In this document: positions 46,129 through 63,242 of the stretch, piece after piece
How the letters are laid out: each line of letters begins with the position of its first letter
How positions within the stretch are numbered: position 1 is the stretch's first letter
Source of the DNA: Deltaproteobacteria bacterium
Lineage (GTDB): Bacteria; Desulfobacterota; Deferrimicrobia; Deferrimicrobiales; Deferrimicrobiaceae
NCBI GenBank assembly: GCA_021815305.1
Contig: JAKAHC010000010.1
Location: forward strand, 7,997 to 71,996
Length of the DNA stretch: 64,000 bases
Direction of reading: 5' to 3'
Translations under genes and position numbers: made by a program
The notes under the pieces: generated by a model
The model's input: the letters and a program-made list of their open reading frames with translations, nothing else
What the model was told of the DNA's origin: nothing
Databases searched by the model: none

Positions 46129-46909
46129 GCCGGCGGTCCTTCCCGTCGTCCTTCTCCTCGCGGCGATCCTGAGCGCGACGGGGTGCCCTTCCGGGAGGCT
46201 CCCCCCGCTTCCCCCTGCTGACGAGGCGCTCCTCCGGGCCAAGTCGGACAAACCGGTTCGCGTGGCGGTCCAGGGCGGCGGCGACGAACCGTTCGCGGCG
46301 ATCGCCGTCTTCCGCGACGACGCGTTCCTCCACCATGCGGCAGCGCTCGAACAGGCATCCATCCCGATCCTGGACGAGTTCGGCAAGGCGGCGATCCTCC
46401 TCCTCTCCCCGGGGCGGGTCCTTCCGCTCCTTGGGGACCCTTCCCTCGCGCGGCTCGCCTGGTTCGGCCCCCAGGGGCTGCTGGCGCGCCTCGACCCTGC
46501 CCTGGAGATCGACCTCCTCTCGCGCTACGGGGCGGGATCCGAAGCGGAGAACACGCCGCTGCTCGTGCGCTTCCGGGACGTGCCGGGGAAAGCGGAGGAG
46601 CGGCACGTCGCCGCGTCGGGGTTCCGCATCGTCACGCGGGCCGGGCCGACCTGGGTCGTCTCCGGGCCCGTATCCGGCGTGCCGAAACTGCTTTCGAACG
46701 ACCGAATCGCTTACCTGGAGAAGGCGGAGACGGGGGGCAACGCTTCGCGGGAAGGCCTTACCAAGACCGCACCGGTGCCCCATGCGGAAACCGGCGGCGC
46801 GGCGCATGACAACGCAACGGCCCCCGCTCCCTCCTCCGGTGGGGAGAGGGCGGTTCCCATCGGGAAAAGACCGCCGTACAGGATCCGGACACCCGAGGAT
46901 CCCCGTTGA
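46079..46909 (+). CDS. Hypothetical lipoprotein with two repeats resembling peptidase propeptide (I9-like) domains
   Basis: LSATGC lipobox and an internal repeat around FRD motifs. Start uncertain. Confidence 0.6.
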   Translation: MSPSVSNTLPPKRRSRRPAVLPVVLLLAAILSATGCPSGRLPPLPPADEALLRAKSDKPVRVAVQGGGDEPFAAIAVFRDDAFLHHAAALEQASIPILDEFGKAAILLLSPGRVLPLLGDPSLARLAWFGPQGLLARLDPALEIDLLSRYGAGSEAENTPLLVRFRDVPGKAEERHVAASGFRIVTRAGPTWVVSGPVSGVPKLLSNDRIAYLEKAETGGNASREGLTKTAPVPHAETGGAAHDNATAPAPSSGGERAVPIGKRPPYRIRTPEDPR

Positions 46910-49047
46910 TATCCTGGCCCGCTTCCCGGTGGGTTGTCGCAATGGCCCTCCTGCTCGCCGGTTGCGGCGCCACGAACGCCTTCGCGCAAAGCGGCCCTGC
47001 TAACGCGGAAGGAATCGCGCACCGGGATGCGGTACCTTCCGCGTCGTTCCTCGCCTCTTTCGCGGGCCGCGCCGTCCGATCCCTGTCGCCGCGGACTTCC
47101 GCACCGGTTTCGCCGAGAGTCGTGCCGCTTCTCCGGGGCCCCGCACCCGTGGAGATCCCATCCGTGTTTCCGCAGTTTCCCACGGACGGTTTCGGCCCCA
47201 TTCCCGGCGCATTGCAGGTTTCCCCCTTGCCGCCGGAGCCCCTGGCCCCGACCCCCCGCGCGCCTTCGCTTCTCTCCTCGTTCATCGGGCTGGTGGACGA
47301 CCTGACGGTCGTCCCGCCGGACACGATGGGGGCGGCCGGCCCCAGCCACCTGGTGAGTTTCCTGAACTCGGAGGTCGGCTTTTTCACCAAGACGGGGACG
47401 CTTCTCAACCCAGGGGTTTCCCTTCGCGACTTCTGGCTTCCGCTGATCTCCGCCGGCAACCTTCCCGACAACTCGGTATCGCCGACCGTCTTCGATCCGA
47501 AGGTCCTCTACGACGCGGGGAGCGGCCGGTTCCTCGCGGTCACCCTCGACGGGAGCCTCCCGACGGACAACTCCTGGATCCTGATCGCCGTGTCGCGGTC
47601 CTCCGATCCCACTGCGGGTTGGAATACCTGGGCGATCGCCGCGGATCCCACGGGCGCCACCTGGGCGGATTATCCGGGACTGGGGGTCGACGACAACAAC
47701 GTCTACATCACGGCGAACCTGTTCGGCGCGGACAACGTGTTCCGGCAGGGAAAGATGTTGCGCATCCCGAAGGCGCAGTTGCTCCCCTCGCCGCAGGCGA
47801 CGACGCTTGCGTGGACGGAGTTCACGATCTCGCGTTTCAACCTCCAGCCCGCTTACACGTTCGGAAGCGCATCGCCGGAATATCTCGTCACGGAATCGAA
47901 CACCGTCATCGGCGGCAGCAGGTCCCTCGACGTGTACACGATCGGAGGGACACCGGCCGCGCTGGTACTCCTGGGTTCCGTCAACGTGGCACCGTACCCC
48001 GTCGTACAGTCCCTGCCGGTCGCGCCGCAGACCCGGATCGACACCGGCGATACCCGGATCCTCAACGCGGTCTTCCGGAACGGACACCTGTACGCCACGC
48101 ACACGGTGTCGGACAGCGCCAACACCCGGACCGAGGCGGCATGGTATGAAATCGTTCCCTCGTCCCCTCCCTCCCTGGTGCAGCAGGGAAGGGTATCCGA
48201 CCCGGCGCGGTTCTACTACTACCCCTCGATCGCGGTGAACGCGAACGGCGACATCGCGATCGGTTTCAGCGGGTCCTCCGCCACCGAATTCCCCGGCGGC
48301 TACTACACCGCGCGGTTTGCCTCCGATGCGGCGGGTTTCACCCAACCGGTGGGAGTGCTGAAAAGCGGTGAGGATGCGTACTCGAAACCCCTCCGCGGCA
48401 CCGACAGCCGGTGGGGGGACTTCAGCGCAACGGTGGTGGACCCGTCGGACGACCTCACCTTCTGGTCGATCCAGGAGTACGCCCGGGTCTCCTCTTCCAC
48501 GCCGGATCCGTCCAACCCTGGGCGATGGGGCACGTGGTGGGGGTCGTTCCGCCTCTCCGGCGTCGCCGCACCCGCAAACCTCGTCGCCACGGCGACGGGG
48601 CCTTTCGAAGTGCGGCTTACCTGGGTCCCCCAGTCGACGAACGAGACCGGGTTCCGGGTCGAGAGAAAGACCGGCGCCTCCGGCACGTACGAGGTGATCA
48701 CTTCCCCCCCGCTGCCGCCGGGCACTGCCTCGTACACCGACAATTCGGTGCTCTCCGGAACCACGTATTTCTACCGCGTGCAGTCGTTCAACGCGACCGG
48801 CAACGCTTACTCCGCCGAGGTTTCCGTAACGACCCCTTCTCCCTCTTCCGGAGGGGGCGGAGGATGCAACGCGGCCCCTCCGGACCGCTTTTCCGCCAAG
48901 GCAGGGGACATCGCATCCGCCCTCCTGTTGCCTGCGCTTCTGCTGCTTTTCGCCTCAAGCCGGCGTCACCTCCGATCCGCGAGGAAACCTTACTCCCCGG
49001 CATCCCGCTTGCTAGTCCGAAGGGAAATATCAGGAGGGAAGCCATGA
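46906..49047 (+). CDS. Secreted protein with an FN3 domain and a C-terminal GGGGC/TM/basic sorting tail
   Basis: Signal peptide, [14 protein letters not shown] motif, FN3 ([31 protein letters not shown]), tail SSGGGGGCN...[16 protein letters not shown]. Confidence 0.85.
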
Positions 49048-50429
49048 TCCAGGCCGATCCGGGGGCGAGGTTATCGGTATCCATATCGAACGGCATGAGC
49101 GTGGAAGTGCGCCTCGGGCTGCGCGAGGTCCGGATCGGGCGGAGCCGGGAAGCCGAGCTTCAACTGCCCGACCCTTCCGTCTCGAGGCTCCACGCCCGAA
49201 TCTTCCGGGTCGGAGCGCAATATTTTCTCGCTGATCTGGGCAGCCGCAACGGCACGCACGCAGGCGGGAAACGGGTGACGCAGCTTCCTCTCGAGGACGG
49301 CCAGACGTTTCACGTGGGTCCCTTCCAGATCCACTTCCACCGCGGCGCCCCCCTGCCTCCCTCCGGGGAAGAACCCACCATATCCCCTTCCGCGGGGGAC
49401 GGCGCGCCGTTCCGCACGTCCCGGCAAGAAGTCACCGGATGCGTTGTCCCGGCGCCATCCTCAAAAACCCGGCTTGCGCCGTACGGCCTCGTCGGAGAGA
49501 GCCACCCCATCCGAGGACTGGTCTCCACGATCCGCCGGGTGGCCGCCTCCGACGTCCCGGTCCTCATCGAGGGAGAAACGGGGTGCGGGAAAGAGCTCGT
49601 GGCGCGGGGGATCCACGACGCATCGGACCGCCGGGACCAGCCTTTCATCGTCGTCAACTGCGGGGCGATCTCCCCCGATCTGATCGAAAGCGAGCTGTTC
49701 GGGCATGAAAAGGGGGCGTTTACGGGGGCGACGGCGCAGCGTAAGGGAGCGTTCGAACTCGCACACAGAGGCACGATTTTCCTTGATGAAATCGGCGAGT
49801 TGCCCTTTCTTCTTCAACCGAAACTTTTACGTGTTCTCGAACAGAAGGAGGTCAAGCGGGTCGGGGGGAACGAGACGCTCACGGCGGACGTGCGGATTCT
49901 GGCCGCCACGAACCGGAACCTGAGGGAGGAGATCGGAAGGAAGGCGTTCCGCGAGGATCTCTACTACCGGGTCGGGGCCGTCACCGTCGAGATCCCTCCC
50001 CTGCGCAGCCGCCGCGAGGACATCGCTCCGATTACCCGCCACTTCCTTCGGGAGATGGCGGCACGGTCGCAGCGCCCCCTTCCGGAACTCACCCCGGAGG
50101 CGCTCGAACTTCTCGTCGCCTACGAGTGGCCGGGAAACGTCCGCGAACTGCGCAACGCCGTCCAGCGCGCCGTGGTGATGACGGACGGCGCGCGCTTTTC
50201 GGCGGACGATTTCTCTTTCCTTGTGAAAGACGCACCCGCCGGCCGGGAGCACGATTTCCCCCCGGGGCTCTCCCGGTGGGAACGGGCGGAGCGTGTGAAC
50301 CTCCTCGCCGAGCTCGCCCGTCAAGGGGGGAACAAGACGAGGACGGCCAAAGAGCTCGGGATCGCCAAGTCCACGCTGTTCGAGAAGCTGAAGAAGTACG
50401 CCATCAGCCCGGCTGATCCAGACCGGTAA
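49044..50429 (+). CDS. FHA-domain sigma54-dependent transcriptional activator (FHA-AAA+-Fis HTH)
   Basis: [18 protein letters not shown] (FHA), [46 protein letters not shown] 49044 with GGAGG RBS. Confidence 0.93.
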
Positions 50430-50546
50430 TCGAACCCCCCATCCGATCCTCGGACCCTGCGGCACGCGGCCGTTTTCCCCTTTCCGTCTCCCGTCGTGTA
50501 ACTGCAGATTCTTCCGCGCTATTTCACCCGACCCACACAAGCATCC

Positions 50547-50563
50547 GGGGCACATCGCTTGCG
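50547..50563 (+). promoter_or_regulatory. Sigma54 (-24/-12) promoter of the flp/tad operon
   Basis: GGGCAC-ATCGC-TTGC with exact GG-N10-GC spacing, about 40 bp before the pilin ATG. Confidence 0.8.
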
Positions 50564-50600
50564 TTACCTTCTCCCAACGAATCCACAAGGGGGAGGGCCG

Positions 50601-50846
50601 ATGGAAACGAATCTCCGGAAGAACCGGAAGGGCCAAGGGCTGACGGAATACATCATCATCGTCGCTCTTGTCGCCATCGCGGGGATCGGGATCGTCAACA
50701 TCTTCGGTAACCAGCTTCGAAACCAGTTCCACGCCATCGTCAGGGCGATGGCGGGCAGCGAGACCGGAAAGGTGAAATCGCTCGCGGGCGCCGCGGAAAA
50801 GGAAGCCAACCAGAAAAACCTCTCGACCTATGCCGGCTCGAAGTAA
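50601..50846 (+). CDS. flp: Flp family type IVc pilin
   Basis: KG|QGLTEY (E+5, Y+6) followed by a hydrophobic helix; 81 aa; GGAGG RBS. Confidence 0.88.
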   Translation: METNLRKNRKGQGLTEYIIIVALVAIAGIGIVNIFGNQLRNQFHAIVRAMAGSETGKVKSLAGAAEKEANQKNLSTYAGSK

Positions 50847-51303
50847 CGGGGGAGCCGCCATGATCGAGTTCCTTCTTGCGGGAACGTTGCTTCTCCTGTT
50901 CCTTCTCGCGATTCTCCAGATGTCCCTCCTTTGGGCGGGGAAGGGCGCGGTCGACACGGCCGCGCACTTCGCCGCAAGGGCGTTCGCCCGTTCGGCCCGC
51001 GTCGATTTCCGGAAAGCCCGCGAGACCGCGTTCCTCGAGGCGTTCCGGATCTGCCGGAACCGACCGGGGGGGGCTCTGGGAACAGCCGCCATGACCGCTC
51101 TCGACATCACCTACGACGGCGAACGGGGGGCGAACCGCGCCTCTCCCGGAGATGCGCTGTGCGTGCGCCTCACCCACGGCGTGGAACTGGTCGTTCCCTG
51201 GATCGACCGGATCCTGTACGCGCTTTCTCCCGGGGAAAAGATCCGCGTGGGGGACCATTTCTACCTCATGTTGCATGCCACCCGCTGGGTCACGGTGGAG
51301 TGA
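50830..51303 (+). CDS. TadE-like minor pilin
   Basis: GG|AAMIEF prepilin site and TM helix. Confidence 0.75.
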   Translation: MPARSNGGAAMIEFLLAGTLLLLFLLAILQMSLLWAGKGAVDTAAHFAARAFARSARVDFRKARETAFLEAFRICRNRPGGALGTAAMTALDITYDGERGANRASPGDALCVRLTHGVELVVPWIDRILYALSPGEKIRVGDHFYLMLHATRWVTVE

Positions 51304-51305
51304 AC

Positions 51306-52217
51306 ATGATCGGACATTTCGCACGGCAGTTCCGCCATGCCCGGGCGGGCAACCGCGGGCAGGCGACGGCTCTTTTCCTGGTGACCATCGCGACGGCCGT
51401 CGCGGTCGCCTTCTCGGCGATACAGATACACCACATCGCGGTGTGGAAAGTCGCATCGGCCGCCTCCGCCGATGCGGTCGCCCTGTCCGCCGCCACATGG
51501 GAAGCTCGAAGCCTGAACCTGATCGCCGCCTTGAACGACGGGGCGACGCAATGCTTCCGCATCATCCGATACACCTGCATCGTCTGGGCCTCCCTGGCGA
51601 TCGCCGCAGCCTTCGGCGCCGGGCTTCCCGCGTTCCTGTCCTATACCCGCCAGGCCCGCAGGCTGATTTCGGGATATTGGGAGATCGCGGGGCAACTCGT
51701 CTCCTGGAGCGAAAAGATCCGGAAAGCCGCTCCGTACCTCGTGCTCGCGGAAACCGCCGACCTCATGAGGAAGCGCAACCTTGCCGGGATCCTGTCCCCG
51801 ACAGATCCCCGCGGCCCCCACGACGGGAAAAACACGCTGGAGCTCCACCTGACGCCAGGTCCTCCGGTCCATCTCTCGGAGGCAATGACGCCGATCTCCG
51901 GCGCCCTCAACCGGTTGAAGAAGATCCGTTTTCTCAAAGGGGCCATGAAAACCGTCATTTCGGCGCTGGACTCCGCCGTGGCGGGAATCGCCGGAAGCGC
52001 CGGAGGTCCGATCCGGATGCTGGTTCCCGAGGAGGATTTTCAGGTCCGCCAGCGCGTACACTTCACCGGATTCCAGACGGTCCCAGGGTTGCCGATCCCC
52101 TTCCTGGGGAAGGAAGGACCGCCAAAAATCTTCGCCGAGGCGGACGCCGCGCCTTACGGCGGGGGGGCCTCCGAGATGACCTGGAAATCCCGCCTCGTCG
52201 AAAGTAGTTCCAGGTGA
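51306..52217 (+). CDS. TadG-like pilus assembly protein
   Basis: RG|QATALF leader, AADAVALSAATWEARSLNLIA helix, position among the minor pilins. Confidence 0.65.
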   Translation: MIGHFARQFRHARAGNRGQATALFLVTIATAVAVAFSAIQIHHIAVWKVASAASADAVALSAATWEARSLNLIAALNDGATQCFRIIRYTCIVWASLAIAAAFGAGLPAFLSYTRQARRLISGYWEIAGQLVSWSEKIRKAAPYLVLAETADLMRKRNLAGILSPTDPRGPHDGKNTLELHLTPGPPVHLSEAMTPISGALNRLKKIRFLKGAMKTVISALDSAVAGIAGSAGGPIRMLVPEEDFQVRQRVHFTGFQTVPGLPIPFLGKEGPPKIFAEADAAPYGGGASEMTWKSRLVESSSR

Positions 52218-52690
52218 AGGCGCACCACCGCCTTTGCGGCGGACAATCCCTTCTGGAAACCGTTCTCCTCTTCCCGCTCCTCCTCATCCTGCTGGCGGCT
52301 GGATACTGGTGCTATCGACACCTCTCCCTGTCGTCCGCAGCCGAGTCCGCGACGCACACGCATCTCCTCCGTTCGGGCAGAGGACAACCCGGCATCGAAA
52401 CCCCCTTGTCCCGTACGGTCGCCCCCGAAGCCCGTTCCGTCCTCCTCAGCGCCGGCACGGCACCGCTGATCGGTCGGATCCCGCTGTTCGGCAAGGTGTC
52501 CGGGAGGAGCACCGCGATGACGGAGATTTCCTGTCCCGCTGACCCGGTGGGGGGGTTCCTCGATCCGCCGGATCACCTTTTTCGTATCGAGAGGGACGCC
52601 GCCGTCGATTGTTGGGAGAGGGATTCCTCCTCCGGAAGGTCGGTCCGCCGGACCGTTCAGGGGATTCTCCTGTCGGGAGGGCTCCGTTGA
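52214..52690 (+). CDS. TadE-like minor pilin 2
   Basis: GG|QSLLET..FPLLLILL. Confidence 0.7.
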   Translation: MKAHHRLCGGQSLLETVLLFPLLLILLAAGYWCYRHLSLSSAAESATHTHLLRSGRGQPGIETPLSRTVAPEARSVLLSAGTAPLIGRIPLFGKVSGRSTAMTEISCPADPVGGFLDPPDHLFRIERDAAVDCWERDSSSGRSVRRTVQGILLSGGLR

Positions 52691-53250
52691 CGCGGAAAAC
52701 GATTTTGGGAACCGCGATCGGCATGGTCGCGCTCGTTGCGGTGTGCGCCGCCGGCCGGGGAGACATCCGGCGAAAAGCCGGTCGAGGGACAACGCGCGTG
52801 ACGGTCGACGGGGCATCCTTCGATGCGGACGGCGCGATCGCGCGGGGCGCAACGCACCTTCGATTTGGACCGGGGAAAGCCGGCATCGATCTTCCGGGAG
52901 AACTCTTGCGCCAGGACGATTCCGGAACAGGTCATGCCGTATTCCCGGAACGGCTCGCGGCGGCACCCCCACGGGTTCCCTCTCCGCCGAGGCCGCCTGC
53001 GGGACTGGCCGTGGAACATACGCTTCGCATGGATTCGGAACGGGGCCCGGTAGATCTTGCGACGGGCCGATTCCGGAAAGGGGGACCCGTGCGGTACCGC
53101 CTCCTTGCCTCCGGATGGAAACTTCTGGGGCCGGAGGCTCCCACGGGGAATCCCTCCATCCTTCAATCCACTTGCGGGAAGGAGACGATGATTGTTTGCC
53201 TGGATGAAGCGGAAGGCAAATTCCTTCTTTTCCGCGAATTGGCCCGTTAG
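52687..53250 (+). CDS. Hypothetical exported protein in the tad operon
   Basis: TTG start overlapping the previous stop and an N-terminal hydrophobic segment; no family recognised. Confidence 0.55.
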   Translation: MTRKTILGTAIGMVALVAVCAAGRGDIRRKAGRGTTRVTVDGASFDADGAIARGATHLRFGPGKAGIDLPGELLRQDDSGTGHAVFPERLAAAPPRVPSPPRPPAGLAVEHTLRMDSERGPVDLATGRFRKGGPVRYRLLASGWKLLGPEAPTGNPSILQSTCGKETMIVCLDEAEGKFLLFRELAR

Positions 53251-54016
53251 GGCCAGGCGGCTGCTGCCCCTTGCCGCCGGCGTCATGTTGACCGCCGTCG
53301 CGCTCCTGTCGGCGGGGAGAAGGATCGCCGCGGTGGAGAGGACGATACGGCTGCAGTCGAATCCCGTGGAAATCGTCGTGGCGGCCGTCCCGATCCCGGC
53401 AGGAGCATCCTTCGCAAAAGAAAACCTGGCGAAGAAGTCCATCCCCTCCTCCGGTGTCGGACGGAGGAATGTTCCGGCATCGGAGTTCGAACTCCTTCTC
53501 GACGCCAGGGCGAGGACCGCCATCGAAGCGGGCGAACCGGTATTGTGGACCGATGTGGAAGAACCGTACGATACCGAAACGTTTTCCCACAGGATCCGCC
53601 CCGGGAGAAGGGGTCTTACGCTCGCCGTCGACGGTTCTTCCACCTTTTCGGGATTGATCCATCCCGGAGATCGCGTGGACCTGCTCCTCGACCCCATCGG
53701 TTCCGGCGGCGCCCCTGGAAGATGGATTCCGGACATCCCTGTGCTCGCGGTGGACCGCGACTACGACGGCATCGCACACGCCGCCGCCCCCTCCGATCCG
53801 TCAAACATCACCCTGATGGTCACCCCCAGCGAAGGCGCGCGGATCGCCGGGGCGGCACGTGAAGGGCGACTCCACTGGTTTCTTCGGAATTCCGAAGACA
53901 ACGTCGTTCCCGCCGCCCGTCCCGCAAGGAACGGCGGATCCTCTTTGCGGGTCGAGGTGTGGAAGGGCGGAATCCGGGCCCTGTCCTCATCGGCCGGGAA
54001 GGAGGTCGCGGATTGA
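53192..54016 (+). CDS. cpaB: Flp pilus assembly protein CpaB/RcpC
   Basis: SAF domain (VVAAVPIPAG), IRPGRRGL, GLIHPGDRVDLL, ITLMVTP. Start uncertain. Confidence 0.88.
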   Translation: MFAWMKRKANSFFSANWPVRARRLLPLAAGVMLTAVALLSAGRRIAAVERTIRLQSNPVEIVVAAVPIPAGASFAKENLAKKSIPSSGVGRRNVPASEFELLLDARARTAIEAGEPVLWTDVEEPYDTETFSHRIRPGRRGLTLAVDGSSTFSGLIHPGDRVDLLLDPIGSGGAPGRWIPDIPVLAVDRDYDGIAHAAAPSDPSNITLMVTPSEGARIAGAAREGRLHWFLRNSEDNVVPAARPARNGGSSLRVEVWKGGIRALSSSAGKEVAD

Positions 54017-55209
54017 GGCTCACCCGGGCCTTCCTTGTCGGAACGACAGCCATACTGTGCGCGTCCTGGGGCGAGGGAGCTCTTATGGCGGAAACGATCC
54101 GGGTCCGGCCGGGTTTCCAGCGGATCCTGGAACGGGAAGGCGTATCCCGCCTCTCCATCGGAGATCCGGAGATCGCCGAAGTTCAACCGCTCCCGAAAGG
54201 GGAAGGGATCCTCCTTGTCGGCAAGAAGATCGGAGAAACCGACCTGGTGCTCTGGGAGAAAGGGAAGCGGACGGAGTGGCGCGTCGAGGTGGGATCACGG
54301 AAGCCTCGGCTCGTGGAGGATGCCAGGGAGTTCGCCTCCGCCTTTCCGGGGCTTTCGGTCATTGCGGCCGGGGATTCCGTGATCGTAGGGGGTTCCCTTC
54401 CGACCGCGGGGGACAGGGCGATCTTCGAGGAGTACGCCCGCAGCCACCCCGGCGTTCACCTGCGTCTCGTCCTCCCGGAGGAAAAAAGGACGCTCCTCCT
54501 GTACGACTTGAAGATCCTCGAGATCAACAGGGGAGAAACAGCCCAGCTGGGAATGCGATGGCCGGATACCCTCACGGCCAAGGGAACGGCCGCGGCGGGA
54601 CCGGGAAACGGGAGGGCGATCTCGGTGGGTTCCGATTTCGAGGCCCGCCTGAACCTTCTGATGGCCGGCGGGAAAGCGAGGATCCTCTCCAACCCCCGCC
54701 TGGCATGTGAAAGCGGGGGGGATGCCAACTTCCTTGCCGGCGGGGAAATTCCCATCGTAATCGTGACGCCGGAAACCAGGACGGTGGAGTGGAAGACGTA
54801 CGGGATCGTGCTCCGGATCCATCCCACCATGGACCGGGGGGGCAGAATCCGGACGCAGGTGACCGCGGAGGTCAGCACGGTGGACCACGGCAGCGGCACC
54901 TCGGAAGTACCCGGCTTCCTCACGCGCCGTGTTTCGACGCTGTTCTCCACGTCCCCCGGACAAACCGTCATGTTGTCGGGACTGGTCAAGAACGAAATGG
55001 CGAAAGACGTGGCGAAGGTCCCCCTTCTCGGGCAGATCCCGATCCTGGGGGAGTTGTTCAAGTCGCGAAATTTCCGCGAGAACCTGACGGAGCTGGCGGT
55101 CTTCATCACCCCCAGCGAGGTGACGGAAGGCGCCGCGGAGCAGGCCGGGGATTGGGAGAGGAAATGGCGCATGGAAGAGGACCGGATGCGATTCCGGCTG
55201 ATGGACTGA
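54013..55209 (+). CDS. cpaC: Tad secretin CpaC/RcpA
   Basis: SIGDPEIAEV, LVGKKIGETDL, ILSNPRL..ANFLAGGEIP, KVPLLGQIPILGELFKS. Confidence 0.9.
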   Translation: MRLTRAFLVGTTAILCASWGEGALMAETIRVRPGFQRILEREGVSRLSIGDPEIAEVQPLPKGEGILLVGKKIGETDLVLWEKGKRTEWRVEVGSRKPRLVEDAREFASAFPGLSVIAAGDSVIVGGSLPTAGDRAIFEEYARSHPGVHLRLVLPEEKRTLLLYDLKILEINRGETAQLGMRWPDTLTAKGTAAAGPGNGRAISVGSDFEARLNLLMAGGKARILSNPRLACESGGDANFLAGGEIPIVIVTPETRTVEWKTYGIVLRIHPTMDRGGRIRTQVTAEVSTVDHGSGTSEVPGFLTRRVSTLFSTSPGQTVMLSGLVKNEMAKDVAKVPLLGQIPILGELFKSRNFRENLTELAVFITPSEVTEGAAEQAGDWERKWRMEEDRMRFRLMD

Positions 55210-55222
55210 GGAGGGCTCCAAG

Positions 55223-56446
55223 GTGCACGGCGACATTCGAAGCACGCTCCACCAATCGGTGCTTGAAAAGCTGGACATCCGGAAATCGGGGCTGCCCCTC
55301 GCAGACGGGATCGGAATTTGGAGAAAACGGGCGGAGGATCATCTCCTGGCGGAGATGCGGAGCCTGCGGATGGACGACGATACCACGGGCGACCTGTCCC
55401 GGGAGATCCTGGACGAGATATTCGCCTATGGTCCGATCACGCCGCTTTTCTCCGACCCCTCCGTGTCGGAGATCATGGTCAACGGATTCGAGACGATCTA
55501 CGTGGAGCGCGAGGGGAAAGTGACCCCCTACGGACGGCAGTTCCTCTCCGAGGAGTCGTTGCGCGCGGTCATCGACAGGATCATCTCCCGCGTCAACCGA
55601 CGGTTGGACGAATCTTCCCCATTCGTGGATGCAAGGCTTCCCGACGGTTCCCGTGTCAACGCCACGATCCCCCCGGTCAGTCTCTCGGGCCCTTGCCTTA
55701 CGATCCGGAAGTTCCGCCGGGAACCGTTTTCCACGGAAGAATTGGTGCGCATCGGAACGCTGACCGCGGAAGCGGTCCGATACCTGCGCGATGCCGTCCT
55801 CCACCGACGGAACCTCATCATTTCCGGAGGGACGGGGTCGGGGAAAACCACCCTCCTCAATGCCCTCTCCCGGTTCATCCCGGAAGAGGAAAGGATCATC
55901 ACCATCGAGGACGCCGCGGAGATCCGCCTCGGGAAACCTCACGTGGTTCGACTGGAGGCCCGACCCCCGAACATCGAGGGCAGCGGCGCCGTCACCATCC
56001 GCGACCTCGTCCGGAACTCCCTCCGGATGCGGCCCGACCGCATCATCGTGGGGGAGTGCCGCGGAGGAGAAGCTCTCGACATGCTCCAGGCGATGAATAC
56101 CGGGCATGACGGGTCCATCACCACGGGCCATGCCAATACGGCGAGAGACATGCTCCGGCGCCTTGAAACCATGGTCCTGTATTCCGGTGTGGAGATCCCC
56201 GCACGGGCGATACGCGAACAGATCGCATCGGCCATCGATATCATCGTCCACACCTCCCGGATCGGCGGCGGGGGAAGAGCGGTCACCTCGATCACGGAGC
56301 TGTCGGGGATGAACGATTCGCAGATCCTGCTGCAGGAAATCTACCGGTGGGAGGGCGGCGGCCACGGGAACCCCGGAGGAGGCAGACTGGTTCCCACGGG
56401 CGTCCCTTCCCGGTTCCTCCCGGACGAGGGAAGACCATGGGAATGA
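55223..56446 (+). CDS. cpaF: Tad pilus ATPase CpaF/TadA
   Basis: EIMVNG, SGGTGSGKTT, NSLRMRPDRIIVGECRG, AMNTGHDGS. Confidence 0.95.
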   Translation: MHGDIRSTLHQSVLEKLDIRKSGLPLADGIGIWRKRAEDHLLAEMRSLRMDDDTTGDLSREILDEIFAYGPITPLFSDPSVSEIMVNGFETIYVEREGKVTPYGRQFLSEESLRAVIDRIISRVNRRLDESSPFVDARLPDGSRVNATIPPVSLSGPCLTIRKFRREPFSTEELVRIGTLTAEAVRYLRDAVLHRRNLIISGGTGSGKTTLLNALSRFIPEEERIITIEDAAEIRLGKPHVVRLEARPPNIEGSGAVTIRDLVRNSLRMRPDRIIVGECRGGEALDMLQAMNTGHDGSITTGHANTARDMLRRLETMVLYSGVEIPARAIREQIASAIDIIVHTSRIGGGGRAVTSITELSGMNDSQILLQEIYRWEGGGHGNPGGGRLVPTGVPSRFLPDEGRPWE

Positions 56447-57288
56447 CCGTCCCGGAATCCGCGTCCTTTCTCCTCGGAGCCGCGCTGATCGTCCGGTTCC
56501 TCCTCGGGTCGGCGATACCGGAAGCGCGTCGGTACATTTTGGATACGGCGAATCGCCATTCCGAAAACCTCCGTGAGGAGTTCCTGCGTCTTCCCCCGCT
56601 CCGCATCGTGGGTGCCCTCGTTCTGTCCTGCCTTCTTTGCGGAGCGATCGTTTTGTGGATGACGAAGTCCGGGGGGGTTGCGACCGCGGCGGGAATCCTT
56701 CCGCTGTCCCTGTCGAGTCTGGCCGTCCGCGGTTACCGCTCGCGCCGCAGAAAGGCGATCCTCGAACGTCTCCCCGCCCTCCTGGACCTCCTGGCCGGCC
56801 ATGTGAAGGCAGGGTACAGCCTCCCGGAATCCTTCGCGGAAACCGTCCCCCTCCTTCCCTGTCCGATCCGCGAGGAGATGTCCTGGGTGCTTCAGCAGAA
56901 CCGGCTCGGCGCCCCGCTCACCGAAGCGTTATCCCGCTGGGAGAAACGGATCGCCGCCGATGAAGTGTCGCTGTTCGTGCGCCCCCTGCGCGCCGCCCTC
57001 CCCGGAGGCGGCAACGTGGCGGCTCTCCTGGAGCAGATTCGCGACATCCTCCGGCAACGGGCCCGGGGGGAGGAAAAACTCCGCAGCATGACCGCTCAGG
57101 CCCGGCTGCAAGGAATCGTATTGACTCTTCTCCCTCCCGTATTCGCCCTGATCCTGTCCAGGATCGATCCCGGTTTCCTCCCCGCGCTCATAGGCACCCC
57201 GCACGGAAAAACCGTCGTCTTCGCGGCGGCTCTGCTGCTGGCCCTCGGTTGGCTCACCATCCGCAAAATCCTTTCCGTGCGTCCATGA
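56443..57288 (+). CDS. tadB: TadB platform protein
   Basis: LPALLDLLAGHVKAGYSL, GGNVA..LE, TAQARLQG. Confidence 0.85.
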   Translation: MTVPESASFLLGAALIVRFLLGSAIPEARRYILDTANRHSENLREEFLRLPPLRIVGALVLSCLLCGAIVLWMTKSGGVATAAGILPLSLSSLAVRGYRSRRRKAILERLPALLDLLAGHVKAGYSLPESFAETVPLLPCPIREEMSWVLQQNRLGAPLTEALSRWEKRIAADEVSLFVRPLRAALPGGGNVAALLEQIRDILRQRARGEEKLRSMTAQARLQGIVLTLLPPVFALILSRIDPGFLPALIGTPHGKTVVFAAALLLALGWLTIRKILSVRP

Positions 57289-58103
57289 CGATCCGGGATC
57301 TCCTCCTCATCGGCATTCCCCTTCTTGCCGGTTGGTCGATACTGGGGTACTCCCTTGCGCCCTTTCTTCGGAATCGACCTCGTACCGACGATGTTTCCCT
57401 GTACCGGTCCGCGCACCGGAGGATGGCGGAACGGCTGATCGACGGGAATCTCTTGCCATTCCCGGGAGCGTGCCTTGTGAACTCCCTGCGGCCCTGGATC
57501 GCCGGGGAATCCGCTTTCCTGGCCCTCCTGCTCGCCGGTGTCGGCCTGGACCGAACGGCGTGGGGGTCGGCCCAATGCGTGGTTGCGGGACTCCTCGTCG
57601 GCTCGGCTGTCGCATGGTTCTCCTTCCGCGACGAATCGCGGCGCGCGCTCCTCTCCGTTCAGAGGGACCTCCCCACGGCATCCATTCTCCTTTCCCTCCT
57701 GCTCGAATCCGGAATGGGGGCTTCGTCCGCCCTCCAGGAAGCGACCTCTTCCGTACCGGAGGGACCTCTTGCACGGGAACTTGCCGAACTGGTCCGCGCC
57801 CGATCGATGGGAGTTCCCCGTGCGGAAACGATCGACCGGTCGAAGCGGCGGGTTCCATTGGAAGAGTATCGTCTCTTCCTCAACCACATCCTTCAGGGGG
57901 AACGGCTCGGGATCGGTCTCTCGCGCAGCCTGCGGGAGCTTTCGGGGCGGATGCTGGAGAACCAGGGACACAGGGCGGAAACGATCGCGCAGCAGGCTGG
58001 TGTGAAGATGCTCTTCCCCCTCGTGGTTTTCATCTTCCCGGCCGTTTTCCTCATCATCCTGTCCCCCATCCTTCTGGGGTTGTGGAACCGGGTTTGGGGG
58101 TGA
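57285..58103 (+). CDS. tadC: TadC platform protein
   Basis: DLPTASILL..ESGMG, GERLGIGLS, KMLFPLVVFIFPA. Confidence 0.85.
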   Translation: MTIRDLLLIGIPLLAGWSILGYSLAPFLRNRPRTDDVSLYRSAHRRMAERLIDGNLLPFPGACLVNSLRPWIAGESAFLALLLAGVGLDRTAWGSAQCVVAGLLVGSAVAWFSFRDESRRALLSVQRDLPTASILLSLLLESGMGASSALQEATSSVPEGPLARELAELVRARSMGVPRAETIDRSKRRVPLEEYRLFLNHILQGERLGIGLSRSLRELSGRMLENQGHRAETIAQQAGVKMLFPLVVFIFPAVFLIILSPILLGLWNRVWG

Positions 58104-58107
58104 TCCG

Positions 58108-58416
58108 GTGAATCGCGGGAAGGGATGCGGGATATTTCTCCTCTTGCTGTGCGCGTTTCTTTTTCCCCCGCCCCCGGTTTCCCGAGCGGCGGAGAATCCC
58201 TCCTCGACGGAAACGCATGCCGACCTTGCGGAGGGGAACCGCCTGCTGCTTTCCATGCGCATCGCCCACGCAAAGCGCCACGCGGGCCGGACCTCCTATT
58301 ACAGAAGCCTGACACGACAGTGGAAGACACGAAATCGAAGAAAGGGGAGCGCACGGGCCACAAAAAGGGAGATCCCCCGGATTACCGCAGCCCCGTCTCC
58401 GTCATCGGGACGATGA
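58108..58416 (+). CDS. Small basic hypothetical exported protein
   Basis: Signal-peptide-like N-terminus, directly after tadC, overlapping the convergent kinase gene. Confidence 0.35.
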   Translation: MNRGKGCGIFLLLLCAFLFPPPPVSRAAENPSSTETHADLAEGNRLLLSMRIAHAKRHAGRTSYYRSLTRQWKTRNRRKGSARATKREIPRITAAPSPSSGR

Positions 58417-60157
58417 CCTTGGGGTTGCCTCCCGGCCGAACCACGAGCTTTTCCGTCTTGTCCACGCCGAGCGGTTCGTTCACGAAGCGCAATCGGCGTT
58501 CCCCCACCGGGAGCCGCACCGACCGTAACGGCGTTTCCCCCAGGTACTTCTCCCCCAGATAGACTTTGGCCCACGGGATCGCCTGGATCGCCTCCACCGT
58601 GCCGACCACGGGTTCCAGCTCCGTGCGAAGGGTCGATTCCCGAAAGAGGGCACCGCCGGGGATCGCCATCCGTTCATATCCGTCTCCTTCCAACACGATC
58701 CCCTTTCCTCCCAGGGAAGCGGGATCGATCGAGAGAGGCGTCTTCCCGAGCGTCGCACCGCTCTCCGAAAGCACCGTCGCCCCCGGTGGGTCCGTCTCGA
58801 TCCGTACGGTTCGGGGTTGTGCCTGGGGCATCGCTTCGACGGCAGGGACGGCGGCGCGAACGAAATCCGACGCAGGAGATCGCCTCTCGGACGCGGCAGA
58901 CGCCGGGAGCACGGGGTTCCCGAACCGCGGTACCGACGGTGACGGCTCGGGGTGAGCGCGCTCCACGGCGGGGGTGTCTGCCTCGGCTTTGCCGGGTGCC
59001 GCCGGCACGGCGTTGCCGTCTCCCCGCAGGTCGTGCGGTACAGGATCCTTTGGAGAAAGGGAGAGACCCGGGGCGGGGGGCGCCTGAGGTTCCGCCCCGG
59101 TGTGTTGCCGCACCTCTCTCCAGAGGAAGATCCCGCCGATCGTCATCGCCGCGAACGCCGCGGCGGCTCCCGCCCGGACCTTCCTGGCGCGCATGCCGTA
59201 CCATTCCCGCCGTTCCTGCACCATACCCCCCGGCGGTCCCGGATTCTCCGCCGGAAACCCCGCCGTCTCCTCTTCCGCCGAAGGCGGGAACAGGACGTCC
59301 CAGAAATCCTCCAGCGCGGGGGCGGCCGCCCGGGGAGGGCCGACTTTCGCCAGGTCCTCGAGGAACCGCCCGGCGGACGGGTACCGGTCCTCCGGGGTCC
59401 TCGCGACCGCCCGACGCAACATGTCCGCCGCGCCGGGGGAAACCCCGGGCATTTCCAGGGAGCGCTCGTCGAACCGGAGCACGCGATCCAACGCCTCTTT
59501 CGGCCCGTCGGCATCGAATAGACGGCGCCCCAGAAGAAGCTCCACGGAGATCACCCCCGCGGCGAACCGGTCCGAGGAGTCGGTGGCCTCCTCCCCCCGG
59601 GCCCGTTCGGGGGAAAGATAACCGGACTTCCCCGCACGCAGCCCCGTCGCCCCCCCGTCTTCCCCCATGGCGCGGGACACGCCGAAGTCGGTCAGTTTCA
59701 CCGACCCCGACCTGCCGAGAAGGATGTTTCCGGGGCTCAGATCGCCGTGGACGACATCTTTCCCGTGCAGGTAGGATAGCCCCGCCCACATCCCTTCCAC
59801 CCAGATCCGCCACACGCCCGGAGGGATCGGCGCTCCCTGCTGTCTCGCCTGCATCGCGGCCTGGGCCAGGTTCCACCCTTCCACGTATTCCATCGCGAGA
59901 AAGAGGTCGCTCCCCTCCCTCCCGAAGTCGAAGACCTGGACGACGTTCTGGTGCGAAAGGGACGCGGCGAGGCGAGCTTCCCGGACAAAGAGGTCGCGGA
60001 AGCGGGAGTCCTCCGCGTGGCGGGGATGGATCACCTTCAGTGCGACCCGTTTGCGGAACCCCTCCTCCCCCGTCATGCGGCAGAGGTACACCTCGGCCAT
60101 CCCTCCGGAGGCGATCTTTCGAAGGACACGGTATTTCCCGAAGCGGTCCGGTCCCAT
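58382..60157 (-). CDS. Hanks-type Ser/Thr protein kinase with TM segment and PEGA-like C-terminal domain(s)
   Basis: IASGGMAEVY, VALK, HGDLSPGN, DFG, GYLSPE, TM (AAAAFAAMTIGGIFLW), IETDPPGATV...LGKTPL. Confidence 0.92.
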   Translation of the reverse strand: MGPDRFGKYRVLRKIASGGMAEVYLCRMTGEEGFRKRVALKVIHPRHAEDSRFRDLFVREARLAASLSHQNVVQVFDFGREGSDLFLAMEYVEGWNLAQAAMQARQQGAPIPPGVWRIWVEGMWAGLSYLHGKDVVHGDLSPGNILLGRSGSVKLTDFGVSRAMGEDGGATGLRAGKSGYLSPERARGEEATDSSDRFAAGVISVELLLGRRLFDADGPKEALDRVLRFDERSLEMPGVSPGAADMLRRAVARTPEDRYPSAGRFLEDLAKVGPPRAAAPALEDFWDVLFPPSAEEETAGFPAENPGPPGGMVQERREWYGMRARKVRAGAAAAFAAMTIGGIFLWREVRQHTGAEPQAPPAPGLSLSPKDPVPHDLRGDGNAVPAAPGKAEADTPAVERAHPEPSPSVPRFGNPVLPASAASERRSPASDFVRAAVPAVEAMPQAQPRTVRIETDPPGATVLSESGATLGKTPLSIDPASLGGKGIVLEGDGYERMAIPGGALFRESTLRTELEPVVGTVEAIQAIPWAKVYLGEKYLGETPLRSVRLPVGERRLRFVNEPLGVDKTEKLVVRPGGNPKVIVPMTETGLR

Positions 60158-60164
60158 TCCGCCG

Positions 60165-60409
60165 CTACCGCCTTGGACTTTCCGTCGAGATCCCGAGCAG
60201 TTTCATCTCCCGGTGGATGCGAATGCGGTCCAGCCCCGGCTTCTCCGCCGTGCGGCTGACGTTCCGGTTGTTCTCCCGGAGTTTGCGGCAGGGATACTTC
60301 TTCCCGAAGGCGAGGGGGCCTGCCGGAAATCCCCGATGCCGAACCGCTCCGACTCGAGGAACTTCCCCGGGATGCACGCATCGTCGTAGACCGCAAGGAC
60401 GGTCCGCAC
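60165..60409 (-). pseudogene. Collapsed ntrX-like response regulator remnant
   Basis: MRTVLAVYDD (receiver start), LESERFG (AAA+ ESELFG fragment), DFRQA, a frameshift, then AFGKKY..KLRENNRNVSRTAE..GLDR..IHREMKLLGI (Fis HTH). Lies directly after the ntrY-like kinase. Confidence 0.75.
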
Positions 60410-60418
60410 CGTTTTCCC

Positions 60419-62620
60419 CTACACCTTCCCCTGTCGTCTTGCGGGAAATTCCAGCTCGAAGACGGCCCCGCGCGGCGAGTTGTCCCTCACGCGGACAGTG
60501 CCTCCGTGATCGTTCGCGATCGCGCTGACGATCGCCAGCCCCAGTCCCGTGCCTCCCTCCCTGCGTGAGAAGTACGGCTCGAAGAGGCGGTCCCTGTCCT
60601 CCCTGGGCACTCCGGGCCCGTCGTCCGACACGATCAGCCGCGCCGTCCCTCGGCCCGCATCGTACATGCAGTCGACCTCCACGCTCCCCCGCCCCGCTAC
60701 CGCATGGATGGCGTTCTCCACCAGGTTGGTGACCGCGCGCCGGATCTGCGAGGGGTCGAACCAGACCGGCGGCATCTTCCCTACGCGGAACTCCCACCGG
60801 ATGTCGGGGTGGGCCGCCCGGTAGGTTTCCAGGACCGGCCGCACCTCTTCCGCCAGGTCCCCTTCCGCAAGATGCGGGGTGGGCATCCGGGCGAACCGGG
60901 TGAACTCCTCGACGAGGTGCTTTATCGTGCCGACCTCCGAGAGGATCGCCTGGGTCAGTTCGGCGAACACCGGGTCGTCGCCGTGTTCCGCGGCATATCT
61001 GCGCTGCATGCGCTCGGTGGATAACTGGATGGGCGTCAGGGGGTTCCGGATGTCGTGCGCGATCCGGCGCGCAACCTCCCGCCAGGCAAGGATCCTTTGC
61101 AGGCGCATCGCCTGAGAGAGATCGTCGAATGCGGCGACCAGTCCCATGTACTCCCCCGCCTCGTCCCGGAGGGCGGTGAGGCTCACGCGGAAAGTGATCC
61201 TCTTCCCGGCGACTTCGAGCTCCACCTGGCGTTCGATCTGGCCCCCCGGCGCATCCCCGGCTTGCCGGTAGATCCCGCGGATCGCCTCGTAGTGCTCTTC
61301 CTGGACTACGTCCCGGTACAGGCGGCCGAGGGCATGGTCGGTGGGAATCCCCAGCAGGCGCTCCGCCACCTTGTTGATCATCGCGATGCGGCCGTGGCGG
61401 TCGATGACGATGACCCCCGTGGAGATGTTGTCGAGGATCGTCACGATGAACTGGGTCCTGCGGTGAAGCTCCTCGTAGGTCCGGGTGAGGGACGCGTTCG
61501 TCTCCTCGAGGTTCCGTTTCATCGCCTTGAGGTCGCCGGTCATCCTGTTGAAGGAGGCGACGAGAGTTCCGAACTCGTCCTTGGACTTGTAGTCGAGGGA
61601 GACGTCGAGGTCTCCCTGGGCAACCTTTTCGGTCCCCTCGGCCAGCATCTGGACCGGTACGGTGATCTGCCGGGCCAGGTAGATCCCCATCCAGGAGGCG
61701 GCGAAGACGATGAGGAGCGTGATCAGGATGAGGATCCCTATGTAGCTCGCGCGGATCGGGTCGTCCAGGAGCCGAACCTGGTGGTACTCGTCGTACGCCT
61801 TCGCGATGTTCCGGACCCACTCGACCTCCTCTGGAGGGAGTTCCGTGAGCGCCACCACGTAACCGCCTCCGGTGAGCCGCCGCCACACCGCCGCATACCC
61901 TTCCCCGATGAGGGTCGGGGAGCCGTTCTTCTCCTCCGAATCCTCCATCCCCCTGAGACGGGAAAGGATTTCCGACTCGATCCCCCCGGGGATCTCCCCC
62001 GCCTGCGCGATCGCGGCGCCCCCTTTCACGTACAGCAACGCCGTCGCTTTCGCGCCTTCGGGACGCACCGAAACGAGGATCCGATAGGCGTCGGACTCCC
62101 TCCCGGCCTCCGTAAGCCTCGCCGCGGCATTGTCCGCAAGGGGAAGGAGCGCGACGGCTTCGGCCTCCAGTTGCTTCCTCGCGAGGTCCAGGGCCCCGCT
62201 GAGCGCCTGCCCCACCCGCCCGCCGATCCACGACTTGATGCTCGTAGTCGTGATGTTCGCCGCAGCGATGAACAGCAGGATCGTCGGGATGAGGGAGAAG
62301 GAGATGAAGATCAGAACCAGGCGGGACCGGATCTTGGCGCCCAGGATGTTCCGGCGCCGGTCGAGGATGATCTTGAAGACGTTCCGCGTGACGAGGAAGA
62401 TCAGCAGGACGACGAAGACGACGTTCAGGTTGATCAGGGCGAAGATGACGATGTTGCTCGTGAAGGCGACCGCACCGCCGACGGCCGCCATGTAGGCCTC
62501 GAGGAACGTGAGCAGAACGACGCAGACCGCGACGATGCCGATGGCCCATCGCTCTCTGCGCCTCTTGGTGCGCTCCGCATCCATGCGCGGAGGCGGATTT
62601 TCCCTTGAAGAGGAACTCAT
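60419..62620 (-). CDS. ntrY: NtrY-like sensor histidine kinase (TM, HAMP, PAS, HisKA, HATPase)
   Basis: AWREVARRIAHDIRNPLTPIQLSTER, NLVENA, DDGPG, EPYFSRREGGTGLGLAIV. ATG 62620 overlaps the upstream stop. Confidence 0.88.
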   Translation of the reverse strand: MSSSSRENPPPRMDAERTKRRRERWAIGIVAVCVVLLTFLEAYMAAVGGAVAFTSNIVIFALINLNVVFVVLLIFLVTRNVFKIILDRRRNILGAKIRSRLVLIFISFSLIPTILLFIAAANITTTSIKSWIGGRVGQALSGALDLARKQLEAEAVALLPLADNAAARLTEAGRESDAYRILVSVRPEGAKATALLYVKGGAAIAQAGEIPGGIESEILSRLRGMEDSEEKNGSPTLIGEGYAAVWRRLTGGGYVVALTELPPEEVEWVRNIAKAYDEYHQVRLLDDPIRASYIGILILITLLIVFAASWMGIYLARQITVPVQMLAEGTEKVAQGDLDVSLDYKSKDEFGTLVASFNRMTGDLKAMKRNLEETNASLTRTYEELHRRTQFIVTILDNISTGVIVIDRHGRIAMINKVAERLLGIPTDHALGRLYRDVVQEEHYEAIRGIYRQAGDAPGGQIERQVELEVAGKRITFRVSLTALRDEAGEYMGLVAAFDDLSQAMRLQRILAWREVARRIAHDIRNPLTPIQLSTERMQRRYAAEHGDDPVFAELTQAILSEVGTIKHLVEEFTRFARMPTPHLAEGDLAEEVRPVLETYRAAHPDIRWEFRVGKMPPVWFDPSQIRRAVTNLVENAIHAVAGRGSVEVDCMYDAGRGTARLIVSDDGPGVPREDRDRLFEPYFSRREGGTGLGLAIVSAIANDHGGTVRVRDNSPRGAVFELEFPARRQGKV

Positions 62621-63171
62621 GGCGTCGCCAGGTATCCGCGGGTCCAGTCGGTCTCGACGTCCCACAGCGAGGAGAAGAAGAAGATAGAACGGAGCGGCTC
62701 GGAAAGGCCCACCTTGTCCAGACGGACGCGGACGCGGGCGCGATACGGCTTCCCCTTTTCGACTTCTCCCCGGATGGGGACGCTCACCTCGAAACGGGTC
62801 ATCCGGCCGAGGGCGGCGTGGATGTCCGGCAGGAGTTCGCTGCCGTCGTCGCTGTCCAGCCGGTAGACCCGGGAGAGGGCGTCATACCGTACGGAACGCG
62901 CATACCGGAGTTTCCCCATCGTCTGATTGAACCACCCCCGGTAGACCCGCTCGACCTCGATGGTGATCTTGAAGGTGATCCGGATTCCGCTTTTGAGCGC
63001 TTCGACCATCTCGGGAGGGAACGCGTGGAGGAGTACGAACCGGACCCGCGCTTCCTTGCCCCGGATCGTCCCGGTGATGTCCGTGATCGTTGGGGGTTTC
63101 GGATCGGCGAAAGCACGTCCCGGTGCCGGCAACAGGAGCCACAGCGTGAAAAAAGCCACCAGGACGCGCAC
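62617..63171 (-). CDS. DUF4390 family periplasmic protein
   Basis: Signal peptide, ALKSGIRITF, VRYDALSRVY, FFFSSLWDVETDW. GTG start 63171 with GGAGGT RBS; typical position before ntrY. Confidence 0.8.
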   Translation of the reverse strand: MRVLVAFFTLWLLLPAPGRAFADPKPPTITDITGTIRGKEARVRFVLLHAFPPEMVEALKSGIRITFKITIEVERVYRGWFNQTMGKLRYARSVRYDALSRVYRLDSDDGSELLPDIHAALGRMTRFEVSVPIRGEVEKGKPYRARVRVRLDKVGLSEPLRSIFFFSSLWDVETDWTRGYLATP

Positions 63172-63187
63172 TTCCACCTCCCGGGCC

Positions 63188-63215
63188 ATTATACCCGCAT
63201 GCTGCGGCTACGCAA
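63188..63215 (-). promoter_or_regulatory. Sigma70 promoter of the DUF4390-ntrY operon
   Basis: Minus strand TTGCGT-16 nt-TATAAT. Confidence 0.55.
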
Positions 63216-63242
63216 CAGATGGGGGGGCCGGAGGCCGCAATG

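Follow-up and report, generated by a model that had tools for sequence, protein, structure and literature searches.

A predicted sigma-54 circuit with an FHA-domain activator, and a candidate kinase input, at a Tad pilus locus of the Deferrimicrobiaceae

The Deferrimicrobiaceae are a lineage without flagella that has not been cultured and is predicted to reduce iron; its published genome description mentions type IV pili and makes no mention of Tad, sigma-54 or FHA (PMC9386147). The stretch of DNA analysed here, 64,000 nucleotides of a single contig and referred to throughout as the window, belongs to a metagenome-assembled genome (MAG) of this lineage that is 79% complete, comprises 2.73 Mb on 317 contigs and is labelled G000. 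It carries a Tad/Flp pilus operon, preceded on the same strand by the gene for a sigma-54 enhancer-binding protein with an N-terminal FHA domain and followed, on the opposite strand, by an operon that ends in the gene for a membrane Ser/Thr kinase. The enhancer-binding protein, hereafter the activator, is predicted to control the pilus operon through a conserved -24/-12 promoter and a pair of upstream palindromes, and it may receive its signal, in the form of phospho-threonine (pThr), from the kinase. Domain calls are Pfam matches, and named-family calls follow the NCBIfam equivalog cut-offs. The region from the activator gene to flp was compared across 18 same-genus genomes and across 12 loci that span two families and among which activator identity falls to ∼42%, and residue conservation was read from alignments of 18 activator sequences (two families) and 16 kinase orthologues.

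The activator and the promoter region of flp

The activator is an FHA-AAA+-HTH protein of 461 aa (49044-50429, forward strand) in which an FHA domain (aa 29-92, PF00498, E 2e-16) is followed by a Sigma54_activat domain (aa 149-315, PF00158, E 6e-69), an AAA_lid_14 domain and an HTH_8 domain (aa 414-452), with no receiver domain among the Pfam calls. The GAFTGA loop, the Walker A motif (GETGCGKE) and the Walker B motif are all intact in the translation and are kept in 18 orthologues. The residues that form the pThr pocket of the FHA domain (IGR, SVSRLH and SRNGT, corresponding to GR / SxxH / NG) are invariant in the 18 sequences of the two families, and the domain is a plausible candidate for a pThr reader. 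The linker between the FHA and AAA+ domains is hypervariable apart from a single invariant Thr112, embedded in the sequence GEEPT. The solved structures nearest to the FHA part are those of Mycobacterium tuberculosis FhaA (TB39.8) and GarA, and no solved structure combines an FHA with an AAA+ domain. None of the NCBIfam equivalogs (NtrC, NtrX, ZraR, PilR, FleQ and others) passes its cut-off against the activator, the matches lying far below it and covering only the AAA+/HTH part. An earlier reading of this DNA from its letters alone (the sequence-only reading) had described an FHA-AAA+-HTH activator with an intact GAFTGA directly upstream of a promoter and flp, and the Pfam calls and the translation bear out each of these elements. 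The adjacency of activator and flp is universal in the two families, while the fn3 gene upstream of the activator and the kinase operon come and go.

The predicted sigma-54 promoter of the pilus operon, P_flp (GGGCAC-ATCGC-TTGC, 50548-50562, forward strand), lies 38 nt before the ATG of flp and has a predicted transcription start near 50574. It is judged real because of its position and conservation and not because of the number of such motifs, since the window holds one match with ≤1 mismatch where 2.2 would be expected, which is not significant; TGGCAC-N5-TTGC is not enriched in the window, and motif enrichment was dropped as promoter evidence in favour of conservation. Within the genus, none of the 18 genomes departs from GG, AC and TTGC, although the spacer (5 nt) and the flanks differ, and all 12 loci of the two families carry GG-N10-GC with TTGC at the same distance from flp, including those of the sister family with their AT-rich intergenic regions. 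The GGCAC-N5-TTGC element that the sequence-only reading placed before flp is confirmed by this conservation.

An unbiased expectation-maximisation motif search of the 155 nt upstream of P_flp in the 12 loci returned, as its top motif, a 15-bp palindrome with the consensus GTCCGA-N3-TCGGAC. Each of the 12 class loci has two copies 20-22 bp apart, the first beginning between -127 and -133 and the second between -107 and -113, counted from the promoter GG. In the window the first enhancer-like site is the palindrome GACCGGTAATCGAAC (50421-50435), which overlaps the stop codon of the activator and has its first base at position -128 relative to the GG of P_flp; the second, ATCCGATCCTCGGAC (50441-50455), lies 20 bp from the first and is degenerate here, at a place where relatives carry a strong second palindrome. 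When a matrix trained on other genera only was applied to the 18 same-genus loci as a held-out test, site 1 was recovered in 18/18 and site 2 (at ≥13.4 bits) in 16/18, with scores of 11-21 bits. Among the other sigma-54-like sites of the genome only 1/49 has the palindrome within 200 nt, and within this genome the combination of a sigma-54 motif with a strong palindrome 110-130 nt before it is confined to flp loci, a restriction that argues for a regulator dedicated to one operon. The arrangement is enhancer-like, since upstream activator sites of the NtrC type are usually laid out in this way, and the tandem palindromes are therefore described here as putative sites of that type.

A second predicted sigma-54 promoter, P_ebp (GGCAT-CCCGC-TTGC, 48999-49012, forward strand), is likewise recognised by conservation and lies 31 nt before the ATG of the activator, overlapping the final codons of the preceding fn3/CTERM open reading frame. 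It is invariant in 16 same-genus genomes, is present in 12/12 loci of the two families and is the top -24/-12 site of the window by an ad hoc score. An enhancer common to P_ebp and P_flp was considered and rejected; the sole 8-mer that they share, TCGGGATC, is coding at both places and is absent on the P_ebp side in the window.

The tad operon and the convergent kinase operon

The genes of the tad operon, all on the forward strand, overlap or are separated by gaps of ≤15 nt. The first, flp (50601-50846), encodes an 81-aa Flp-like prepilin with the processing motif KG/QGLTEY (of the G/XXXXEY type); its Flp_Fap match (E 2e-5) scores 24.6 bits against a cut-off of 32.2 and there is no NCBIfam match, and orthologues 65-88% identical occupy the same place in all loci. 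It is followed by a TadE-like pseudopilin of 147 aa (50860-51303; TadE 26.4 bits, above cut-off), a membrane-anchored protein of 303 aa at the position of TadG (51306-52217), which is kept in all loci and matches nothing in Pfam or NCBIfam, and a second TadE-like protein of 158 aa (52214-52690), whose TadE score of 19.9 bits is below cut-off and which is syntenic in relatives. The next gene (52687-53250) starts with a TTG that overlaps the preceding stop codon (TTGA) and encodes a predicted lipoprotein-like protein of 187 aa with no Pfam or NCBIfam match. In the distant loci L139 and L140 this position is likewise occupied by predicted genes of 187-188 aa, and the product could be a pilotin or a substitute for TadD.

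The remainder of the operon encodes CpaB/RcpC (53192-54016; RcpC 54 bits, SAF 34 bits), the CpaC/RcpA secretin (53959-55209; Secretin 120 bits, T2SS-T3SS_pil_N 55 bits), the CpaF/TadA ATPase of 407 aa (55223-56446), and the platform proteins TadB (56347-57288; T2SSF 46 bits) and TadC (57249-58103; T2SSF 54 bits), the last gene of the operon. The start codons of CpaB/RcpC, the secretin and TadB are uncertain. CpaF/TadA, TadB, TadC, CpaB/RcpC and the secretin with its pilus N domain all score above their Pfam cut-offs; CpaF/TadA, which has no FHA domain, matches T2SSE at 208 bits and TIGR03819 (TadA family) at 333 bits, the latter under its equivalog cut-off. A weak terminator-like hairpin follows tadC (58113-58130). 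No TadV/CpaA, TadZ/CpaE or TadD is encoded in 50601-58103, the search for these having covered that interval and not the rest of the genome. In a closed genome of genus g16 (G043, locus L126) the tad operon is seemingly cut after cpaC, and the place of cpaF-tadB-tadC is taken by genes for a histidine kinase and an NtrC-like regulator.

The kinase gene (58382-60157, reverse strand) encodes a Hanks domain (Pkinase aa 9-259, PF00069, E 2e-39), one transmembrane (TM) segment (hydrophobic near aa 330-347) and two PEGA stretches, predicted to be periplasmic. All orthologues carry the VALK Lys, the alpha-C Glu, the H(G/R)D motif, the catalytic-loop Asn and DFG, and a juxtamembrane EE(E/D)T motif is conserved. 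By fold and motifs the protein belongs to the Hanks-type kinases, and it may be catalytically active. The catalytic loop of the window copy reads HGDLSPGN (aa 136-143), is non-RD, is alone in the genus in having Gly for the Arg of HRD and resembles loops of the APH/ABC1 type. The sequence-only reading had this kinase closing the pilus operon; the kinase with its TM segment and PEGA domains is indeed present, and yet it is not part of the tad operon, to which it is transcribed convergently, being instead the last gene of an operon that runs from DUF4390 through ntrY and a relic of ntrX.

That operon begins, on the reverse strand, with a DUF4390 protein (62617-63189; Pfam E 8e-30) and an intact NtrY-like sensor histidine kinase (HAMP-PAS-HisKA-HATPase, 60419-62665), followed by ∼245 bp (60165-60409) that preserve the beginning of a receiver domain together with an HTH of the Fis type, the AAA+ core having been deleted. 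By tblastn the HTH piece is 58% identical to residues 433-475 of the intact NtrX of a relative (G013; E 7e-14). An intact ntrX occupies this position in genera g16, g17, g18 and g21 and in the sister family (f2), and it has been lost in the window genus (g1), whose other loci retain only 57-70 nt there, and in g24; because of this loss, NtrY appears to be orphaned in the two genera.

A possible kinase input and its rivals

Taken together, these features suggest a circuit in which sigma-54 RNA polymerase would sit at P_flp (50548-50562) and the activator would bind the tandem palindromes (50421-50455), 100-130 bp upstream, via its Fis-type HTH, oligomerise and open the promoter with its GAFTGA loop and ATP. 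The product would be a single transcript comprising flp, tadE, the 303-aa gene, the second tadE, the lipoprotein gene, cpaB, cpaC, cpaF, tadB and tadC. The activator gene would in turn be switched on from its own sigma-54 promoter by another activator, as in a cascade. This chain of activator, enhancer, promoter and tad operon is well supported in silico, and we consider it very probable.

The input to the circuit is a weaker part of the proposal. The N-terminal FHA domain may gate the activator by reading a phospho-threonine that would be written by the PEGA membrane kinase (58382-60157). One candidate phospho-site is Thr112, which could act as a GarA-like switch on oligomerisation through pThr-FHA binding in cis or in trans; another is the juxtamembrane EE(E/D)T motif of the kinase, which could serve as a docking site. 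Because the kinase gene is co-transcribed with those for DUF4390 and NtrY, envelope signals sensed by a DUF4390-NtrY module might be coupled in this way to pilus expression. The sequence-only reading had traced much the same route, from an extracytoplasmic signal through kinase and FHA activator to sigma-54-dependent pilus expression; the activator-promoter-flp half of that route is strong in silico, given the conserved promoter, the palindromes and the tight operon, whereas the kinase-to-FHA half is reached by indirect evidence. The combined model, in which the FHA activator circuit with a kinase input controls tad, is given a probability of roughly 0.6.

The neighbouring kinase is a likely but unproven input to the activator, because it is usually the only Hanks kinase of the genome. 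Across 11 high-quality genomes of the class, searched as whole genomes, 8 have a single Pkinase match, the PEGA kinase, together with a single FHA match, the activator; three further genomes of the class have a single kinase. A phylum-wide count of kinases was also made and set aside as too heterogeneous to inform. The kinase and activator genes share a contig at a distance of 9-10 kb, in convergent operons, in 27 genomes of 10 genera, and the co-occurrence around tad loci proposed from the sequence alone holds to that extent. The unchanging pThr-pocket residues of the FHA domain, Thr112, the EE(E/D)T motif of the kinase and the kinship of the FHA domain with the pThr readers FhaA and GarA also speak for the link. 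The step from kinase to FHA domain is plausible, and we treat it as an even call.

Several observations weigh against the combined model. The tad and kinase loci are unlinked in two genera: in g16 a closed genome has 31 kb between them and a second genome places them on different large contigs, as is also the case in g18. The constant partner of the kinase is ntrY/ntrX and not tad. In all 16 kinase orthologues the Lys of the catalytic loop HRDLKPxN is replaced by Ser or Thr (H[R/G]D[VLI][ST]PxN); related phosphotransferase families that lack this Lys are active. The MAG itself contains, at ∼5.7-15 kb of contig C66, a cluster of two Hanks kinases, a protein with two FHA domains and a PP2C phosphatase. 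This type of cluster is absent from the other same-genus genomes checked, and a kinase-kinase-FHA cluster also occurs in genus g3 of the sister family, where PP2C was not detected (G014). No consistent eraser accompanies the kinase, PP2C_2 being found in only 4/10 genomes and never linked. The window copy of palindrome site 2 scores <9 bits, and the matrix built from the flp palindromes has no match in the 450 nt that precede P_ebp in any of the 12 loci. Finally, neither of the two Pfam models for RpoN, Sigma54_DBD and Sigma54_CBD, has a match in the 79%-complete MAG; rpoN is found in 10/12 same-genus genomes and in 18/21 relatives.

Some of these observations are what would be expected if the activator and its sigma-54 promoter control tad and the PEGA kinase is not their input. 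The kinase would then serve the DUF4390-NtrY-NtrX module to which it belongs, perhaps with NtrX or NtrY as the protein that it modifies, its convergence with tad would be inherited synteny, and the regulator of the FHA domain would be a different kind of kinase or a partner that acts independently of phosphorylation. The kinase closes the ntrY/ntrX operon in every locus examined, its genes often overlapping or nearly abutting, its catalytic loop is atypical, and in g16 and g18 the two operons have separated and neither has been lost. In genus g3, moreover, the kinase linked to ntrX has no PEGA tail in G014 and one that can hardly be detected in G015, and the FHA-activator-tad arrangement is still kept. 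Without the PEGA kinase as writer, however, most genomes of the class would hold a canonical pThr-type FHA domain and no Hanks kinase for it, and the kinase is retained in g1 and g24 after the loss of ntrX, which argues that NtrX is not its only target; on balance we regard a kinase devoted to its own module as somewhat unlikely. The most economical version of the combined model lies at the other extreme. In it, one kinase and one FHA reader would be devoted wholly to transcription of the Tad pilus, the kinase would phosphorylate Thr112 or its own juxtamembrane Thr and so switch AAA+ assembly at the enhancer, and in genera lacking NtrX the FHA activator would be the sole sigma-54 output of the NtrY-kinase module; so strict a pathway is distinctly doubtful.

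The promoter half of the combined model faces rivals of its own. P_flp might be fired by a different enhancer-binding protein, either one of the ∼20 paralogues in the genome or, ancestrally, NtrX, while the FHA activator would mainly serve other targets, such as the type II secretion/CTERM-cargo genes upstream of it. Activator paralogues are indeed numerous, and the activator gene terminates a gsp-p276-(fn3) gene string in all loci. Because P_ebp has no palindrome, at least one other activator probably acts in the locus; simple autoregulation by the FHA protein was set aside on the same ground, and the activator gene is probably driven by another activator, as a cascade. Yet the strong palindromes that mark flp loci within the genome abut the stop codon of the activator itself, whose adjacency to flp never breaks across the two families; no strong sigma-54 site or palindrome precedes the gsp genes in the window; and P_flp is retained in genera without NtrX, which together make a different activator at P_flp very unlikely. 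It is more improbable still that the -24/-12 match is a product of chance and that flp is read from an unrecognised promoter of the sigma-70 type or by read-through from the activator gene. The motif count of the window, no higher than chance, and the missing rpoN of the MAG would suit such a view; on the other hand, GG and TTGC keep a fixed distance from flp and never change across the 18 plus 12 loci, amid bases that do vary, rpoN occurs in congeners, and no sigma-70-like promoter match was found anywhere in 48800-63400.

Related systems and genomic context

Activators with the same FHA-AAA+-HTH architecture, and with a presumed Ser/Thr kinase input, were reportedly described in Myxococcus xanthus by Jelsbak, Givskov and Kaiser in 2005 (PNAS 102:3010). 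The myxobacterial proteins act in the developmental network of the fruiting body, in genomes with about a hundred kinases, whereas the lineage of the window has one FHA protein and usually one kinase per genome, and the predicted target is a single adjacent pilus operon. To our knowledge, the switching of FHA-type sigma-54 activators has never been worked out, in part because the known examples sit in those kinase-rich genomes. In the present lineage the system would be very small, with kinase, FHA protein, predicted enhancer, promoter and operon each represented once. Of the FHA domains with solved structures, those nearest to that of the activator belong to the actinobacterial systems of GarA/OdhI and FhaA with PknB/PknG. 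The FHA domain of GarA binds a phosphorylated Thr from a flexible segment (ETTS) of GarA itself, and this serves as the model for Thr112 of the activator, for which a cis-binding switch is hypothetical; the targets of GarA are metabolic enzymes and not an AAA+ activator.

Control of a pilin gene from a -24/-12 promoter with tandem activator sites upstream is also familiar from PilS-PilR in Pseudomonas, Geobacter and Myxococcus, although the pili are there of type IVa and not Tad/type IVc, and the input is two-component. The nearest parallel among Tad systems is DVU2114 of Desulfovibrio vulgaris Hildenborough, an adjacent sigma-54 activator that controls a Flp/Tad pilin locus (Rajeev et al., 2011, PMC3333781; Kazakov et al., 2015, PMC4641369). 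As in the window, an enhancer-binding protein with an intact GAFTGA stands next to an Flp-type pilin gene and cpa/tad genes in a Desulfobacterota-related lineage, and DVU2114 binds upstream of the pilin genes. DVU2114 is, however, a two-component response regulator with a receiver domain, whereas the window activator has an FHA input, no receiver and no cognate histidine kinase, and the binding motifs differ, that of the window being derived in silico only. The view in the sequence-only reading that well-studied tad loci are controlled by two-component or CtrA-type regulators holds in part, overlooking the sigma-54 control exerted by DVU2114 (PMC3333781).

The Kil apparatus of Myxococcus is another Tad-type machine associated with FHA domains, which suggests control by pThr, and, like that of the window, its operon encodes no TadZ; the FHA domains are borne by parts of the machine, including the KilF ATPase (Seef et al., 2021, PMC8460266). 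Control of Kil would for that reason be post-translational, whereas the CpaF of the window has no FHA domain and the FHA domain is found on the transcription activator. The literature search returned no report that combines FHA, sigma-54 and Tad/Flp. Two aspects of the locus are thus already known in kind, namely the FHA activators of myxobacteria and the sigma-54 control of Flp pili in Desulfovibrio; the tandem palindrome, P_ebp and the one-FHA/one-kinase genomes are the points that are new relative to the sequence-only reading. With phospho-threonine, the regulation of Tad pili would have a third type of input in addition to two-component and cell-cycle regulators, and the model predicts how an uncultured, non-flagellated, iron-reducing lineage (PMC9386147) times the production of an adhesive pilus.

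Beyond the pilus locus, a strict sigma-54 motif has 57 matches in the 2.73-Mb genome, 32 of which lie just before a ribosome-binding site and an open reading frame; the genes behind such motifs include glnB, several genes for activators and one for a type IVa pilin, which indicates that the sigma-54 system is in use in this genome. The MAG encodes at least 21 sigma-54 activator paralogues, and the regulon is large for a 2.7-Mb genome. The position of -24/-12 motifs before several activator genes, together with the many paralogues, suggests that activator cascades exist in this organism.

Two more partial copies of the gsp-fn3-activator-flp-tad locus, diverged from that of the window, are also present in the MAG, on contigs C129+C93 and C205+C82, with an activator 72% and an flp 88% identical to those of the window. 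They probably derive from co-binned related populations and are not paralogues, as high-quality relatives have a single copy. When the full-length activator was used to search for homologous loci, most of the matches were generic AAA+ paralogues belonging to many phyla; among the 80 loci returned, the FHA part was also matched in only 3, with a kinase nearby in 2 of these and flp 7 kb away in 1.

Between the gsp genes and the activator, a gene on the forward strand (46906-49047) encodes a secreted fn3 protein of 713 aa in which a stretch rich in Gly and Cys, a hydrophobic helix and a tail rich in Arg make up a CTERM-like sorting signal. This fn3 gene is present in the window genus (g1) and in g21, and no gene stands at its position in the distant loci L139 and L140 or in the sister family.

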